Counted from the stretch's first letter, positions 42,141-48,775 are shown. The stretch: DNA of 64,000 nucleotides from an uncultured Fibrobacterota bacterium (GCA_963753345.1 CAVWBU010000035.1:64001-128000); one strand, 5' to 3'. The notes: a model not told the origin generated them from the letters alone. Translations and numbers: made by a program.

Positions 42141-42883
42141 CGGAGGGGCTTATTGGAAACCACGAGGAGCGCGGGAACGTCGCCTTCGCCCGCGTAGGGG
42201 AGGGGGATGGACGCGGCCGGATAGGACCTGTTGTTGAGGAGGATCGTATCGCCTTTCACCTCGGAGATCGATTCCACGTTGTCCATGCCGATGACCGTTG
42301 ACCCTTTCTTGACAAGAACAGAATATCCGGGCCAGCAGGCAAGCCCGGCGCAGAAGTCCCTGCCGACGGCGATCCCGCCGCAGGCGAAAAACACGGCAGT
42401 GTCGAGGATGGTGAAACGCGCCTTTGCCTGCAGCGTGAGCACGTTCTCGCCTTTCACGTTGTCCATGACAAAGGCGGGAGCCGCGGCGAGGTTCCTTGCG
42501 GCCGAAAAGACGGTGCCGGTGTTCGCGGGAAAATGGCCGCAGGAAAGAATGACGTACTGTGAGTCCGTTATGGAAAGCACCGAAAGCGCCATGGGCCCGA
42601 GGTATTTCTGGGCAAGCTCGGTCACCTCGGGTGCGGAGCGGTCCTTGTCGACAAAGAGCTTCATGGAAAACTCCCTGTCTGCCGCGACGACGCCGGCGAA
42701 AGCGGCGATCTGGCCCGAAAGCAGGTCCATCCTCGACGTGAGCTGGCGGCCGACCGCCTGCTTCACAAACGCGAGTTCCGCGGAGGCCGCGGCCTGTTTG
42801 TCGGACTGGCCGCACCGGAGAAACAGGGCCGCAGGGACAAGCAGCGCCGCGCAGGCCGCGCGCACGGGAAGCCGCGACATCAT
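42137..42883 (-). CDS. Putative lipoprotein with an extracytoplasmic sensor-like domain
   Basis: Hydrophobic leader ending LFLRC; ATGA overlap with the adk stop. Confidence 0.65.
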   Translation of the reverse strand: MMSRLPVRAACAALLVPAALFLRCGQSDKQAAASAELAFVKQAVGRQLTSRMDLLSGQIAAFAGVVAADREFSMKLFVDKDRSAPEVTELAQKYLGPMALSVLSITDSQYVILSCGHFPANTGTVFSAARNLAAAPAFVMDNVKGENVLTLQAKARFTILDTAVFFACGGIAVGRDFCAGLACWPGYSVLVKKGSTVIGMDNVESISEVKGDTILLNNRSYPAASIPLPYAGEGDVPALLVVSNKPLR

Positions 42884-43453
42884 GCAAAGACCTTTCGTAT
42901 CCTGGCGAAAACGTCGTCGATGGAGCCGATGCCGTCTATGTCCCGCACGATCCCCTGGGGCCGGTAATAGTTGATGCACGGCTCGCTCTGGCTCTTATAC
43001 GTATCGATGCGGTTCTGGATAACCTTCGGGTCCGCGTCGTCGGCGCGGCCTTCGATGGAGGCGCGCTTGAGCAGGCGGGTGCGGATTTCCTCGTCCCTGA
43101 TCGCGATGTTGATGATATGGTCGAGCTTCATCCCGAGCTCCGAAAGGATTTTGTCGAGCGCCTGCGCCTGCGGCACGCTGCGCGGAAAACCGTCGAGCAG
43201 AAAGCCGGCCTTCATGTCGGCTTTGCCGAGCCGGTCCTTTCACCATTGCGATGGTCACTTCGTCGGGCACGAGCTTGCCCTTGTTTGAAAAGAGCATTGC
43301 GGTCTTTCCGAGTTCGGTGTTGCCCTTGATGTTGACGCGGAACATGTCGCCGGTTGACACATGCGGAAGCGACAGCAGCTCAACCAGTTTTTTCGCCTGC
43401 GTGCCCTTGCCCGCGCCCGGAGGGCCGAAGAGGACGATGTTGTTGCCTGCCAT
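42880..43453 (-). CDS. adk: Adenylate kinase, apparent frameshift near 43240
   Basis: [17 protein letters not shown] and LVPDEVT, then GFLLDGFPR and GRADD in the next frame. Confidence 0.93.
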
Positions 43454-43568: not shown

Positions 43569-43930
43569 GGGGGAGAAGTCTCTCCCCCGGCCTCGGCCGG
43601 CCCTGCCGTCCTTGGCACTCCCCTCTCAGGGGTGCACCCCTAGTGGATGCAGTGGCAAGAGTCAACTTCGGCTGGGGGGCACCCACGGGCGATAGTGGCA
43701 TGAGGAAATTACGGCTGTTTTCTTTGGTTCTTTGTTGCTTCTATAAGTTCTGGCGCAAGAAGAATACTTGACAAAACATATTCCTCTTGCCGCGCGTTAG
43801 GAGCGACTGGAGGCCGCGCCGGAGCGCGGTGCTGCCTGACCACGGCACGAAGTGCCCTCGTGGCAGGCAGCCCGAGGCCGAAGGCCGAGACCGGAAGGAG
43901 AACCGACCCCGCGTAGCGGGGGAACGCCCA
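43569..43930. repeat. Composite repeat: family B copy 4 (43569-43685) plus family A copy 6 (43768-43930)
   Basis: GGGGGAGAAGTCTCTCCCCC...GGGGGCACCCA ... TTGAC...GGGGAACGCCCA. Confidence 0.8.
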
Positions 43931-44030
43931 GTTTTTTATCTTTATTGGTAATTTCCTCCCCTCGAAAACGAATAACTCCGTGGAAGGATCATGGAATTAT
44001 CTTTGTAATACAGGAATTAATTAAACCATC

Positions 44031-45125
44031 ATGATTACCAGACGAGACCTTCTCAAATCCTCCGCCGCGGTGGCGGGAATGTGCGCGGCGCCGGGGTGCT
44101 TTGCCAAGCCCGCGAGCGCGAGAAAAACCGCCCTGTACTGGCAGGCCATGGGCGAGAACGCGGTGGCGTGCGAGCTGTGCCCGCACCAGTGCGTCCTTCA
44201 GGACGGCAAGACAGGCATCTGCCGCACGCGCGAGAACGTGAAAGGCACGCTCGTCAACAACGCTTATGCCAACCCCTGCACCACCCACGTTGACCCGGTG
44301 GAAAAGAAACCGGTGTTCCATGTGCTTCCCGGCACCAAGGCATATTCGCTTGCCATTGCGGGCTGCAACCTGCGCTGCCTCAACTGCCAGAATTATACCA
44401 TCAGTCAACAATTCCCCAAAGACACCGAGACCATGTTCCTGCCGCCGGAAAAGGTTGTCGAAGAGGCAAAACGGGAAGGCTGCTCCTCCATTGCCTATAC
44501 CTATTCGGAGCCCATAACATGGTTCGAGTATGTGCTTGACACGTGCAAGCTGGCGAGAAAAGCCGGCCTCAAGAACATCCTGGTGACCGCGGGCTACATC
44601 AACGAGGCGCCGCTCAAGGAGCTTTCCGGGTACTTGGACGCGGCGACCATCGATCTGAAGGGCTTTAAAAACGAGACGTATCTCAAGCTGAATTCGGCGA
44701 AATTGCAGCCGGTGCTTGACGCCATAGCGAATGCCGTGAAATTCGGCATCTGGGTCGAAGTGTCTACCCTGGTTGTTCCCACCTACACCGACGATTTCGA
44801 CATGATCCGAAAAATGTGCGCCTGGCACAAACAGAACGTGGGCGCCGACGTGCCGCTGCATTTCCTGAGGTTCTTTCCGCTTTACAAACTGGAAAACCTT
44901 TATCCCACGCCCACCGACGTGCTGGTGAAGGCGAAGAAGATCGCGATTGAAGAGGGGATACAATTCGTCTACATAGGCAACGTGGCCGAGGTGGATTCCA
45001 GCACCTACTGCCCGTCATGCAAGAAAGCCCTTGTGGTGCGCGACGGCTACCTCATCAAAAAGATCGCGATCAGAAACGGGAAATGCGACAATTGCGGGAC
45101 CACGATCCGAGGGATCTGGTCTTAG
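44031..45125 (+). CDS. amrS: AmmeMemoRadiSam system radical SAM enzyme with a Tat signal
   Basis: MITRRDLLK; CELCPHQC, DPVEKKP, GCNLRCLNCQN, AYTYSEP and CPSC...CDNC. Confidence 0.93.
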   Translation: MITRRDLLKSSAAVAGMCAAPGCFAKPASARKTALYWQAMGENAVACELCPHQCVLQDGKTGICRTRENVKGTLVNNAYANPCTTHVDPVEKKPVFHVLPGTKAYSLAIAGCNLRCLNCQNYTISQQFPKDTETMFLPPEKVVEEAKREGCSSIAYTYSEPITWFEYVLDTCKLARKAGLKNILVTAGYINEAPLKELSGYLDAATIDLKGFKNETYLKLNSAKLQPVLDAIANAVKFGIWVEVSTLVVPTYTDDFDMIRKMCAWHKQNVGADVPLHFLRFFPLYKLENLYPTPTDVLVKAKKIAIEEGIQFVYIGNVAEVDSSTYCPSCKKALVVRDGYLIKKIAIRNGKCDNCGTTIRGIWS

Positions 45126-45167
45126 CAGCCGCAGCGCTTTTCGCAAAAGCCGGGATTATATTTACCC

Positions 45168-46079
45168 ATGGATGTGCTTATGCCGTATCAGCGAAGCCCG
45201 AAAGTCACCGGCGTTCTGAGAGTGACCGTTTCCATCCTCGCGGGAGTGATGATCATGACTGCGGCATGCTCGGGTCAGGGACAGGACAGGGTGAGAAAGC
45301 CCGCGGTTGCGGGACAGTTCTATTCCGACAATCCGTCGGAACTGAGGCGGGACGTTGAATCGTACCTGTCGCACGGGAAGCAGCTCGCCTCGGCGCCGAA
45401 GATGCTCATCTGCCCTCACGCAGGCTATGTTTTTTCCGGGCCGGTGGCGGGCATCGGGTATGCGACGCTTGACAAAAACATCAAGACGGTTATCCTGCTC
45501 GGCCCGCCGCATCATGTTCCGGTGCGCGGCATTGCAACGGCCGGCGCAGACTGGTTCGAGACCCCGCTCGGCAGGGTGGCGGTCGACACGGATCGCGTGA
45601 AAAAGCTCCTTGCGAGTCGGCTTGCGTATGAGGACCCCGCCGCCCATGCTCCCGAGCACAGCGTTGAGGTGCAGGTGCCGTTTCTGCAGGTGCGGCTCGG
45701 ATCGTTCAAAATAGTGCCCCTGCTCGTTTACGACATCGACCCGCAGAAGGCTGCCGACGCCATTTTTCCGCTTATCGACGAATCCACCGTGGTGATCGCC
45801 TCGTCCGACCTTTCCCACTACCACAGCAGCAATGAGGCGAAGGCGATAGACCAGAGGACCATTGCCACGATCCTTGCAGGGAACGACCAGGGAGAGATTG
45901 ACGCATGCGGCGAGATGCCGATCCGCGTGGTGATACGGCTCGCGAAGATGATGTCGCTAACGCCGGTTCTCCTTGACGCCCGCAACTCATTCGAAACCGC
46001 TCCGGCGTTCGGTTCCGAAGACAGGGTGGTGGGATACGCCTCAATTGCATACGTAAAGAAGCCCGCCGGGAAGAAGTAG
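45168..46079 (+). CDS. amrB: AmmeMemoRadiSam system protein B (MEMO1 family), lipoprotein-like leader
   Basis: RKPAVAGQFY, PHAGYVFSG, EHSVEVQVPFLQ, SSDLSHY and VVGYAS. Confidence 0.93.
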   Translation: MDVLMPYQRSPKVTGVLRVTVSILAGVMIMTAACSGQGQDRVRKPAVAGQFYSDNPSELRRDVESYLSHGKQLASAPKMLICPHAGYVFSGPVAGIGYATLDKNIKTVILLGPPHHVPVRGIATAGADWFETPLGRVAVDTDRVKKLLASRLAYEDPAAHAPEHSVEVQVPFLQVRLGSFKIVPLLVYDIDPQKAADAIFPLIDESTVVIASSDLSHYHSSNEAKAIDQRTIATILAGNDQGEIDACGEMPIRVVIRLAKMMSLTPVLLDARNSFETAPAFGSEDRVVGYASIAYVKKPAGKK

Positions 46080-46145
46080 CAGTTTGTTGATGGAATCATG
46101 AACAACCTCACCGCAAAGGACGCAAAGACAAATTCGTGAAGGTCA

Positions 46146-46856
46146 ATGATTATGAAACGTCACTCGGCAATAATACGTGTCATCATTCTCGGAGCAACAC
46201 TCATGGCCGTCGTAAATTGCGATGCGTCGTCCGACAAGACCGGTGAGAAAAAAGCCGCCGCAGGGAAAGCGGACAGCGTGAATTCCGCCGCCACAAAGAA
46301 CGCGGACGATCTTTCTCAGGATGTCAAGACATTCCTGCTCAAGCTGGCGCGTCAGAACCTTGAGGCAGCGGTGAAGGGCGGATCCCCGGTGGTGCCCCAG
46401 AATTCTCCGGCCATAACCAAGGAATACCGCGGCTGTTTTGTCACGCTCACCAAGCATGGCGAGCTTCGCGGCTGCATCGGGTACATCGAGGGGATAAAGC
46501 CGTTGTACGAGGCCGTGATCGACAATGCCAAGAACGCCGCGCTTGAAGACCCCCGTTTTTCCCCGGTGACCCCGGACGAGCTCTCTGGCATCGAGGTGGA
46601 GGTGTCGGTGCTCACCAAACCCGAGCCCCTGCCGCATACGAGCCCGCAGGACCTTCTTGACAAGCTGGAGCCGGGCAAAGACGGCATCATTTTGTCCAGC
46701 GGCTACCACCAGTCCACGTTTCTGCCCCAGGTGTGGGACCAGCTCCCGGACAAGGTGGACTTCCTCGAACACCTCTCCATGAAGGGCGGCATGCCCGAAG
46801 ACGGATGGAAGACCGCAGATGTCAAGCGCTACCGCGCCGTGCATTTCCACGAGTGA
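46146..46856 (+). CDS. amrA: AmmeMemoRadiSam system protein A (AMMECR1 family), lipoprotein-like leader
   Basis: GCFVTL, LRGCIG, DPRF, EVSVLT and TFLPQVW. Confidence 0.93.
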   Translation: MIMKRHSAIIRVIILGATLMAVVNCDASSDKTGEKKAAAGKADSVNSAATKNADDLSQDVKTFLLKLARQNLEAAVKGGSPVVPQNSPAITKEYRGCFVTLTKHGELRGCIGYIEGIKPLYEAVIDNAKNAALEDPRFSPVTPDELSGIEVEVSVLTKPEPLPHTSPQDLLDKLEPGKDGIILSSGYHQSTFLPQVWDQLPDKVDFLEHLSMKGGMPEDGWKTADVKRYRAVHFHE

Positions 46857-48775
46857 CGTCAAGCCGGCGCCGTTTCTTTTCGGCGCCGGCCTGTTTGCGG
46901 CCGCGCTGCAGACCGTGTTCTTCCGCGAATTCCTCTCTGTTTTTTCCGGCAATGAACTTTCCATCGGGCTGATCCTGTGCGTGTGGCTCCTGGCCGTGGG
47001 CGCGGGCGACCACGATTTCGTCCCGTGGCCCGGGCCGGGAAGCGGGCAAAGGCTTTGCGCCGGGCGGCGCCGTGTTCGCGCTTGTCGTGTGCGCGGCCGC
47101 GGGTGTCACTATTGTCCGGGCCAGCCGCCTGGTGTTTCTGCCGGGCGAGGCCCTGGGCCCGCTTCAGATGCTGGCGGTGGCCGCCGCAACCGAACTGCCG
47201 TTCGCGTTTGCAAACGGGCTGGTGCTGGGCGCGCTGCTCTCGCGGCCGGCGCAACCGGCCAAGCTTTACGGATGGGAGAACGCGGGCGCGGCCGCGGGCG
47301 CGCTGTGCGTGTTCGCGTGCGTGCTCGCCGGCGCGCCCAACAGCCTGATCGCCGCCGTTGCCGCGCTTCCGCTATTGTTTCTGAGCCGCCGAACGCCGTG
47401 GTTTTGTCTCGCATCCTTGGCGGCGCTGGTTCTTGTCGTGTCGCTTGACCGCGTATCGGTGCAATGGAAATATAACGTTCCTTCGAACGGAATCGTGTAC
47501 GGCCGGGAGGGTGAAATCGTCCAGGCGGACATGGGCGGGGACACCACGTTCCTTCTTAACGGCGCGCTGTACAAGTCGACCATGCAGAAGCCGTTCCTTG
47601 AGCAGGCGGTCCACATCCCCATGGGGCAGCGGCCGAACGCGAAGCGTGCGCTTGTGGTGTTCGACCGGGGCCAGAAACGCGAGCTGGCAAAGTATCCCGA
47701 TTGTTCGGTTGACGTAGTGGAAACCGAGCCGGCGTTTGCCAAAAGGGGAGGCGCCGTCGCCGCGATCGAGACGTTTCGCCCCGCCGCGCGGTACGACGTC
47801 GTGTTTCTGGGGACCGGCATTCCGCGCACCGCGGCTGCGAACCGTTTTTACACGCGCTCATTTTTAGCGCGCGTAAGAACGTTCCTCACCGACGCGGGGA
47901 TCGTCACGTTCACGCTGCCGTTTTCCGAGAACTACTTCTCTCCGGCGGAGAAGAAGCTGTACGATGCGCTGCGCGCGACGCTTTCCTCGGTGTTCCCCTA
48001 TGTTCTGGTATTTCCGGGTGAAGGATATACCTTCATGGCCTCGGTTGCGCCGCTTTCCACACACTGGAACGTCAGGGCTGCCACCGAGTACCTTGCGCAG
48101 TCCATCATTCCCGCTGCTTCGGGCGAGCGGGTCAGGGAAGCGAACCAAAGTCCGGTATTCGCTGTTGTCAATACCCGGGACAGACCGCTCGCGCTGCTGC
48201 TCGGGCTGGAAAGCTGGACCGAGCTGTTCAGGAACCAGTTTGCCATTCTCATTGCGCTGCTCGCGGCCTGTTTTTGCGCCGCGCTCTGGTTTTCGCCTCG
48301 GACCCGCGCCGGCCTCTCGGTGGGAACGAGCGGGCTCGTTCTCGGGGCGTATTCGGTGTGCCTGCTTCTTATTTATCAATCGACCTGCGGCGCGCTCTAT
48401 TCGCGGGTATCGCTGCTGCTCGTCGCGCTCACGGCCGGGTTCTGGGCCGGAGCGTTTGTAAAGAAGCTGCCGCTGTCCGACCTCGCAGTGGGTATCTACT
48501 GCGGCGGCACCCTGCTTGTGCTTTCGGCAATCCCGTCTCCCATGCCGTTTTTGTTCTACGCGTTTCACGCGGGTGCGGGAGTTCTGGGGGGCGCGCAGAT
48601 CGTTTCGAGGAAAAACGCGGGACTCGGCGGGCTCTACGCAGCCGATGTGTTCGGCGGGGCGGTTGGGATGGCGCTGTGCTCGACGCTTTTGGTTCCGCTG
48701 GTGGGGATTGTGCCGGTGGCGCTGGGCATGGCCGCCATCAAGGTAATCGTTGAAATTGTCAATTTTATAAAATAA
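46819..48775 (+). CDS. Polytopic membrane protein with a spermidine-synthase-like domain, apparent frameshift near 47020-47070
   Basis: REFLSVFSGNEL leader, LYGWENAG, ANRFYT and LYAADVFGG motifs of fused membrane/spermidine synthase proteins; start uncertain. Confidence 0.8.

Follow-up and report, generated by a model that had tools for sequence, protein, structure and literature searches.

An AmmeMemoRadiSam operon with export-type leaders on its soluble components and a linked membrane protein in an uncultured Fibrobacterota bacterium

Background

AmmeMemoRadiSam systems, in which a Memo-like protein, an AMMECR1-like protein and a radical S-adenosylmethionine (SAM) enzyme are encoded together, are assumed to be soluble and to carry no targeting signals, and the eukaryotic homologues MEMO1 and AMMECR1 are disease-linked. 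In this study, we describe an operon of this kind in a 64,000-nucleotide stretch of DNA from an uncultured Fibrobacterota bacterium (GCA_963753345.1, CAVWBU010000035.1:64001-128000; hereafter the window), in which the radical SAM enzyme (rSAM), Memo and AMMECR1 each bear an export-type leader and are coupled to a fourth gene, G4, for a membrane protein with a major facilitator superfamily (MFS) fold and an inserted domain resembling spermidine synthase (SpeE). To our knowledge, radical SAM enzymes are regarded as cytoplasmic without exception, given their need for SAM, for a low-potential reductant and for protection of an oxygen-labile cluster, and we know of no radical SAM chemistry described outside the cytoplasm. 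The function of AmmeMemoRadiSam systems is unknown; RNA base modification was predicted by Balaji and Aravind 2007 (PMC2034487), and an RNA substrate would be hard to reconcile with an outside location.

Other described systems share single features with this locus. Fused MFS/spermidine synthases (NF037959) and the membrane-bound polyamine aminopropyltransferase (PRK03612) likewise combine an MFS membrane domain with a soluble SpeE domain, whereas in G4 the SpeE-like domain, flanked by two extra helices, lies between the MFS halves instead of C-terminally and has lost the GGGDGG and D-x-x-D-P motifs. As a cofactor-laden iron-sulfur protein with a twin-arginine (RR) leader, the rSAM resembles the iron-sulfur enzymes exported by the twin-arginine translocation (Tat) pathway. 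By sequence, its nearest characterized radical SAM relatives are pyruvate formate-lyase activating enzyme and other glycyl-radical activases (TIGR02493, E 1.7e-15), but its score of 57 bits is far below the cut-off of 232, the operon has no glycyl-radical enzyme, and those activases are cytoplasmic. Relatives of the rSAM are fused to FMN_bind domains (flavin mononucleotide-binding, with the ApbE motif), Fer4_5 and DsbD_2 modules, which recall NapH-like and DsbD-linked flavinylated systems. Meheust et al. 2021 (PMC8238504) describe FMN-binding domains and NapH-like proteins as components of extracytosolic electron-transfer systems, most of them with unknown terminal reactions; unlike these, the present operon has no electron module. 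The terminal modules of that article include no radical SAM enzyme, the term 'radical SAM' having 0 occurrences in it.

In the literature that we searched (subscription journals lay outside its scope), there was no description of an exported, periplasmic, extracytoplasmic or secreted radical SAM enzyme or of the present pattern, and none of the AmmeMemoRadiSam papers dealt with localization, judging by titles and the starts of abstracts. Searches combining radical SAM with twin-arginine, AMMECR1 or MEMO1 returned nothing relevant, apart from one Tat paper that names a radical SAM protein as a neighboring gene only.

Results

Anatomy of the operon and family membership

The operon occupies positions 44031-48775 of the window on the plus strand and consists of four head-to-tail genes, as the initial annotation had placed them, flanked by genes of the opposite strand only. 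The rSAM (44031..45125, 364 aa) scores 341 bits with TIGR04337 (cut-off, 220), the Memo-like protein B (45168..46079, 303 aa) matches TIGR04336 at 244 bits, and the AMMECR1-like protein A (46146..46856, 236 aa) matches TIGR04335 at 202 bits; all three genes are on the plus strand, as is G4 (46819..48775), which is split into two frames in this assembly. The CX3CX2C motif of the rSAM (C112, C116, C119), its N-terminal 4-Cys motif and its C-terminal Cys pairs are invariant among 96 relatives. With three families above their cut-offs, co-location and the family motifs, the operon is like canonical AmmeMemoRadiSam loci, of which leaderless triads occur in the same phylum (L050, L051, L053, L054), and it is a variant of that system rather than a non-member. 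It differs in carrying an export-type leader on every component and in its coupled G4. The family models begin only at residue 36 of rSAM, 43 of Memo and 63 of AMMECR1, so that the three proteins have N-terminal extensions of 35, 42 and 62 residues, respectively. No other Memo or AMMECR1 was found in the genome (94% complete), whose sole copies are thus the leader-bearing ones. The names under which the closest homologues are recorded assign the organism to Chitinivibrionales (phylum Fibrobacterota).

A conserved Tat-type leader on the radical SAM enzyme

The twin-arginine signal that had been noticed in the rSAM (TRRDLLK followed by a hydrophobic stretch) is present. Its leader (residues 1-31; 44031..44123, plus strand) starts with MITRRDLLK, passes through the moderately hydrophobic stretch SSAAVAGMCAAPGCFA into KPASA and offers CFA and ASA cleavage-like sites, and residues 2-30 score 18.3 bits with TIGR01409, a curated model of TAT signals (cut-off, 16.7). 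An RR motif lies within the first 35 residues of 82 of the 120 best rSAM homologues, and in most of the remaining ones the first residue falls within the hydrophobic stretch, which looks like a start called too far downstream. With such short-start homologues left out, an alignment of 96 relatives (A3; identity down to 46%) has R5 invariant and R4 at least 90% conserved. Across five close pairs, the proportion of nonsynonymous differences in the leader codons (pN, 0.16-0.21) is well under that of synonymous differences (pS, 0.51-0.93), therefore indicating protein-level constraint, i.e. purifying selection; in the more distant L003 pair, the values are 0.43 and 0.59. The best 11-residue hydrophobic window scores 1.3-2.3 in rSAM leaders and 1.95-3.43 in Memo leaders, and this lower hydrophobicity is as expected for Tat versus Sec signals. 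The genome also encodes TatC (TIGR00945, 197 bits, contig C19).

Leaders of Memo and AMMECR1

Lipoprotein-like leaders had also been proposed for Memo and AMMECR1, and this part of the initial annotation stands with regard to the hydrophobic leaders and their strings, less so with regard to the lipid. Memo has a Sec/lipoprotein-type leader (residues 1-33) that ends in ILAGVMIMTAAC with Cys34 (IMTAAC), and the leader of AMMECR1 (residues 1-24) ends in ILGATLMAVVNC with Cys25 directly after 'VVN' (AVVNC), followed by a low-complexity tether of ~37 residues. Each of the 16 complete Memo or Memo-AMMECR1 sequences listed keeps the hydrophobic leader. Its Cys is not conserved (L002 reads ...LMAATVPG, and L003 has no Cys), and a lipoprotein signal is therefore not a conserved property of Memo. 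A lipobox has the consensus [LVI][ASTVI][GAS]C after a hydrophobic stretch; MTAAC of Memo fits a relaxed version, and VVNC of AMMECR1, with Asn at -1, is not canonical. A Cys preceded by N, K, H or D recurs in orthologues of AMMECR1 and, within the order, in fused Memo-AMMECR1 proteins (LFNC, LFKC, LFHC, MLNC). Among 508 crude lipobox candidates of the genome, residue -1 is N in 11, A in 86, G in 54 and S in 51, and genes for Lgt and two LspA proteins are present.

Leaders are linked with the membrane protein gene

Used as bait in metagenomes, G4 yielded 21 confirmed loci, and Memo, AMMECR1 or rSAM adjoined it in 17 of these; the four loci with no partners are one contig of 3 kb and three matches that are weak or distant. 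The sequencing runs contained at most 45% of the sampled words, and the strains in them are relatives. Two main gene orders were found, one with a Memo-AMMECR1 fusion followed by G4 and rSAM, the other with rSAM, Memo, AMMECR1 and G4 as in the window; in the contig type with the fusion order, like L004, the rSAM leader reads KRTFLK. A leader with [RK]R was present in 17/17 rSAMs, 13 of them from metagenome loci and the others from the window and from beside G4 in L002-L004.

Sampling of the phylum gave a consistent result. Among 201 Fibrobacterota genomes, 79 have a TIGR04337 match above the cut-off and 45 a strong G4 match (E <= 4e-45), and a hand count among the matches listed places G4 on the same contig as, and at most 8 kb from, the rSAM in 37 of the 45. 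Of the other eight, seven have Memo or AMMECR1 adjoining G4 (short contigs or split operons), and none was seen in G004. We fetched 20 loci with G4, and 20 rSAM loci from 19 genomes with no G4. The co-occurrence of signals with the membrane gene, which the initial annotation had put forward as a check, was borne out: all 12 rSAMs beside G4 (one locus duplicates L002) carry a leader, which is a very hydrophobic anchor in L070 and contains [RK]R in the other 11, and 19 of the 20 rSAMs in G4-less genomes are leaderless (L057 by our own reading), including those of the four ordinary triads mentioned above. The exception is L055, which has a Tat-type rSAM leader and no partner. The four genes are linked, if not always contiguous, as 2.4-5.7 kb separate rSAM from Memo/AMMECR1/G4 in L073 (G027:C1) and L075 (G002:C1), and in G061 and G049 the operon is divided between contigs or loci.

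We built a tree from 56 catalytic cores, with leader columns excluded, duplicates and fragments left out and three rows re-labelled by hand. One branch (Shimodaira-Hasegawa-like approximate likelihood ratio support, 96) has all 29 leader-bearing rSAMs on the same side, and the tree requires one change for the leader and three for G4 association. Extension of this single origin to the wider family was rejected: a tree of 148 representatives needs 11 leader or anchor changes, and a single origin is supported in the locus-based tree only.

On another contig, the genome has a second TIGR04337 gene (G000:C16:116077-117039; L014 1468-2484; 289 bits), which is leaderless, has no Memo, AMMECR1 or G4 neighbors and finds its closest sampled relatives in orphan copies on Cloacimonadota contigs (L006-L012). 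In G067, an extra radical-SAM-like open reading frame (L071 9579-10655, minus strand; a weak match, 51.6 bits) lies beside a G4-rSAM pair and starts MDLSRRSFMK...FLKAC, with a twin-arginine leader and a lipobox-like Cys at its end.

G4 is a frameshifted MFS-fold protein with an inserted SpeE-like domain

G4 starts at ATG 46819, with a 38-nt overlap with the end of AMMECR1, and the same start arrangement occurs in L002. Its first frame runs to about 47007 and the next frame on to 48775, owing to one extra base at 47008 that is missing in the contigs of near-identical strains (95-99% alike; 3 runs, 2 studies). Without this base, G4 is a single open frame of 651 codons, in line with intact orthologues of 653 aa (L002) and 662 aa (L003). 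The adenylate kinase gene adk upstream of the operon (42880-43453, minus strand), the sole copy in the genome, is also split into two frames, with its break at about 43238-43293 and with fragments that cover residues 1-72 and 54-189 of its L002 counterpart. Because this only and essential adk is frameshifted as well, and because near-identical strains do not have the extra base, both breaks are probably sequencing or indel errors of the assembly.

The description of the fourth gene as a polytopic membrane protein with a spermidine-synthase-like domain proved correct, with a SpeE fold that profile and structure comparison recover and family-model matches that are weak. A profile of G4 finds 7xif (E 3.3e-22) and 1uir (E 5.4e-21) in the PDB, and PRK00811 matches weakly (E 5.7e-6). 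No MFS family was found in Pfam/NCBIfam scans of the window, L002 or L003 proteins; a G4 relative in L004 ('uncultured Bacteroides sp.') matches NF037959 at 55 bits against a cut-off of 40, whereas NF037959 hits neither the window protein nor that of L002. A search with the L004 protein for longer fused forms of G4 found none, which is weak evidence. An AlphaFold2 (AF2) model built from the L002 orthologue with an 82-row alignment (predicted local distance difference test, 93.2; predicted template modeling score, 0.91) consists of seven helices, a soluble domain at about residues 205-451, and seven more helices; mapped to the window, this domain, of class I methyltransferase fold, corresponds to approximately 47447..48187 on the plus strand. 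In the VIA wide structural search, the membrane part of the model resembles VMAT2 (Z 26.0, root-mean-square deviation 3.2 A, 309 residues) as well as VAChT, FLVCR2, OCTN2, SotB, ENT1 and NarK (Z 21-23), dozens of MFS chains align at Z 17-24 across residues ~10-652, and the soluble domain resembles Thermus SpeE (1uir, Z 21.2 over 256 residues). Foldseek on the whole model returned SpeE chains only (1uir, TM 0.58), and the MFS fold emerged only with VIA.

SpeE enzymes have a glycine-rich GGGDGG loop and a catalytic D-x-x-D-P motif. The window protein reads VVFDRGQ and LGTGIP at these positions, and since both motifs align to other residues, G4 is not a spermidine synthase by its sequence. Part of the nucleotide pocket is kept, with E256, H260, E296 and D321 invariant or at least 90% conserved and E296 at the ribose-binding acidic position.

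In canonical MFS proteins, both ends and the central loop are cytoplasmic. Each half of G4 has one extra, uniformly apolar helix adjoining the inserted domain (helix 7, PWAALVCLAALAFVPAF; helix 8, LGLVIALLVACFCVAAWLV), giving a 14-helix model that we drew by hand and whose helix number agrees with that of AF2. Under this model, short loops average 12.3 K+R on the 'in' side and 2.5 on the 'out' side, with in > out in 82/82 sequences, and the far-side loops of the two flanking helices carry RR/KKR/PRRS and PRTR/VKNK/PRVK in three orthologues. These K/R-rich loops therefore place the SpeE-like domain, as a prediction from the model, on the outside.

Fusions in the wider family

A search of 1.84 billion cluster representatives gave 1338 rSAM relatives at E <= 1e-30. 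Among the best 150 of these 1338, classed by script, 87 are leaderless, 35 have an RR leader, 22 have other N-terminal helices or domains (with a few miscalls), 3 have an N-terminal extension with no hydrophobic segment and 3 are truncated. Some carry fused domains, and seven fusions compared with NCBIfam (P0234, P0239, P0241, P0244, P0246, P0248, P0249) each score >360 bits against TIGR04337. In P0234 and P0239, one N-terminal helix is followed by FMN_bind with the ApbE motif D..SGAT (DTVSGAT, DAVSGAT) and then by the rSAM, with no intervening helix. FMN_bind is combined with NapH/NosR-like Fer4_5 modules in P0243, P0245 and P0249, the last of which also has DsbD_2, and P0236 and P0247 are DsbD_2 fusions. 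As judged from these sequences, the fusions suggest a possible route of reduction and lend independent support to an outside location of the family. Behind an N-terminal helix, the rSAM is joined in P0246 to a CBM_11 carbohydrate-binding module (CBM; 28.2 bits against a cut-off of 27) and in P0244 to a Reg_prop/PorZ-like beta-propeller, so that some members of the family may come into contact with glycans or surface structures. P0248 joins rSAM, Memo and AMMECR1 as a single chain behind an N-terminal anchor, and P0283 and P0293 are leaderless three-domain fusions. An intein interrupts the TIGR04337 enzyme P0265 and bears, according to Pfam, a LAGLIDADG homing endonuclease domain.

Discussion

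An extracytoplasmic reading of the operon

The anatomy of the operon, the conservation of its leaders, their linkage with G4 and the fold of G4 are what we observed, and from these we infer, with moderate confidence, that the operon is an extracytoplasmic variant of the AmmeMemoRadiSam system. This reading is favored because the conserved leaders are linked to G4, the leader-bearing enzymes form a one-sided clade, the SpeE-like domain is predicted to face outward, relatives bear fusions of extracytosolic type, and the genome encodes TatC, Lgt and LspA. The proposal of an extracytoplasmic modification system with a membrane partner, made in the initial annotation, thereby gains from leaders, linkage, clade, topology and fusions, and loses through a SpeE-like domain that has given up its glycine loop and catalytic aspartates.

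If this is so, the rSAM would fold and take up its iron-sulfur clusters in the cytoplasm and then cross by Tat, and Memo and AMMECR1 would cross by Sec, with AMMECR1, and in this strain Memo too, probably remaining membrane-bound through a lipid or an uncleaved anchor at the N-terminus. G4 may be a dedicated transporter of MFS fold, whose two extra helices would bring the degenerate spermidine-synthase-fold domain to the outer face, and this modeled fold fits the handling of SAM or of a substrate. It might move a small adenosyl compound across the membrane and hold it at the outward domain beside the enzymes, the traffic being SAM outward and/or 5'-deoxyadenosine and methionine inward; this transport step, suggested by fold and context only, is tentative. 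Electrons would come from a donor outside the gene set of this operon, and the flavinylated FMN-binding, NapH-like and DsbD-like fusions of relatives offer a concrete candidate route. The substrate would be an envelope or extracellular molecule.

Taken to its full extent, the scheme has G4 exporting SAM, or exchanging it for 5'-deoxyadenosine and methionine, and presenting it on its dead SpeE-fold domain to the Tat-exported rSAM for turnover in the periplasm, where tethered Memo and AMMECR1 would take part in acting on an envelope or extracellular substrate. We regard this complete version as doubtful. The substrate could possibly be a glycan, since one relative (P0246) carries a CBM11 module, and the Memo/AMMECR1 pair would then act on a small or polymeric metabolite, not on RNA. 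Should the outside location be correct, the existence of a conserved export-built clade in several phyla, with a transporter-like partner, would mean that the periplasm of anaerobes receives SAM or an equivalent, and the search for the function of the Memo/AMMECR1/radical-SAM trio would narrow to substrates outside the cytoplasmic membrane.

Several observations weigh against an outside location or its proposed workings. No SAM source or reductant is encoded in the operon, which has no FMN_bind, NapH or DsbD-type module, the single FMN_bind match of the genome lying elsewhere. With regard to the leaders, the Pfam model TAT_signal (PF10518) gives the rSAM 22.1 bits, slightly below its cut-off of 22.7, and TIGR01409 at E <= 0.01 matches fewer than 20 of the 96 relatives and misses the L002 orthologue; its count over relatives was not used as support, the score of the window protein alone being used. 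Protein-level constraint on the Memo and AMMECR1 leaders is weak (pN/pS about 0.6-0.9), and close Memo orthologues share a Met late in the hydrophobic leader, which means that a downstream Memo start may yield a leaderless, cytoplasmic form. Linkage is incomplete in L005 and L055, which have leader-bearing rSAMs with no G4 in view, and the compared genomes are interrelated, so that the counts overstate independence. G4 itself is frameshifted in this assembly, and both the leader and topology calls are heuristics of ours, including the in/out assignment of the hand-drawn 14-helix model. Adenosyl binding by the SpeE-like domain is putative: PF01564 scores 16.4 bits on G4, below its threshold of 22.9, the L002 orthologue has no NCBIfam family match, and in the profile alignment GGGDGG falls on 'igd..kG' and D-x-x-D-P on 'glgeP', i.e. 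the motifs were lost in the lineage.

Weighing the alternatives

The same proteins could be membrane-associated and act at the cytoplasmic face, with an RR leader that is vestigial or binds a chaperone, as exemplified by NarG, with Memo and AMMECR1 leaders that serve as anchors or are skipped through downstream starts, and with helices 7 and 8 of G4 not spanning the membrane. The SpeE-like domain would then sit in the usual cytoplasmic central loop of MFS proteins, which is exactly where it is inserted, close to cytoplasmic SAM and low-potential reductants, and both the conserved Met late in the Memo leaders and the weak support from Tat hidden Markov models among relatives are in keeping with such a location. 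We nevertheless consider it unlikely, as helices 7 and 8 are uniformly apolar rather than amphipathic, their far sides carry the basic loops described above, the leaders of all three proteins come and go together with G4, and the FMN_bind (ApbE motif) and CBM fusions of relatives lie behind a single N-terminal helix. The more radical notion that the true starts lie downstream of the leaders, making this an ordinary cytoplasmic system with an annotation artefact, can appeal to in-frame Met codons at rSAM residues 17 and 40, Memo 28 and 30 and AMMECR1 20. It is very improbable in view of the purifying selection on the rSAM leader and its invariant R5 in 96 relatives, of leaders that are open and hydrophobic in all orthologues, and of the leaderless members, whose starts lie about 15 residues ahead of the first Cys motif with no comparable frame upstream.

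Export of the enzymes does not by itself place catalysis outside. Tat moves folded, cofactor-loaded proteins, and the radical SAM step could precede Tat transport, or be a single turnover with bound SAM and a reduced cluster, G4 serving as transporter of a substrate or product. Such an arrangement would account for an operon that has no SAM or electron route and for a SpeE-like domain that has neither catalytic nor glycine-loop motifs. It fits poorly with the fusion of rSAM relatives to transmembrane electron-transfer modules (FMN_bind, NapH-like, DsbD_2), which implies repeated reduction outside, and with conservation of at least 90% at the ribose-binding acidic position E296 and at E256 and H260, and we hold it to be quite improbable.

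Upstream region of the operon

The Rfam scan found no riboswitch in the 5' region of the operon (a snoR9 match at E 0.82 is a chance match), and promoter and terminator scans gave no usable signal above shuffles. Upstream of the operon, the intergenic stretch at 43750-43940 of the window contains a single unit of a GC-rich repeat, about 160-190 nt long and rich in hairpins, with no match to an Rfam family. This repeat has >350 blastn matches (67-94% identity) on nearly all contigs of the genome and is present too in the relatives' loci L018-L020, L075 and L001, and it looks like an element of the repetitive extragenic palindromic (REP) or miniature inverted-repeat transposable element (MITE) type.

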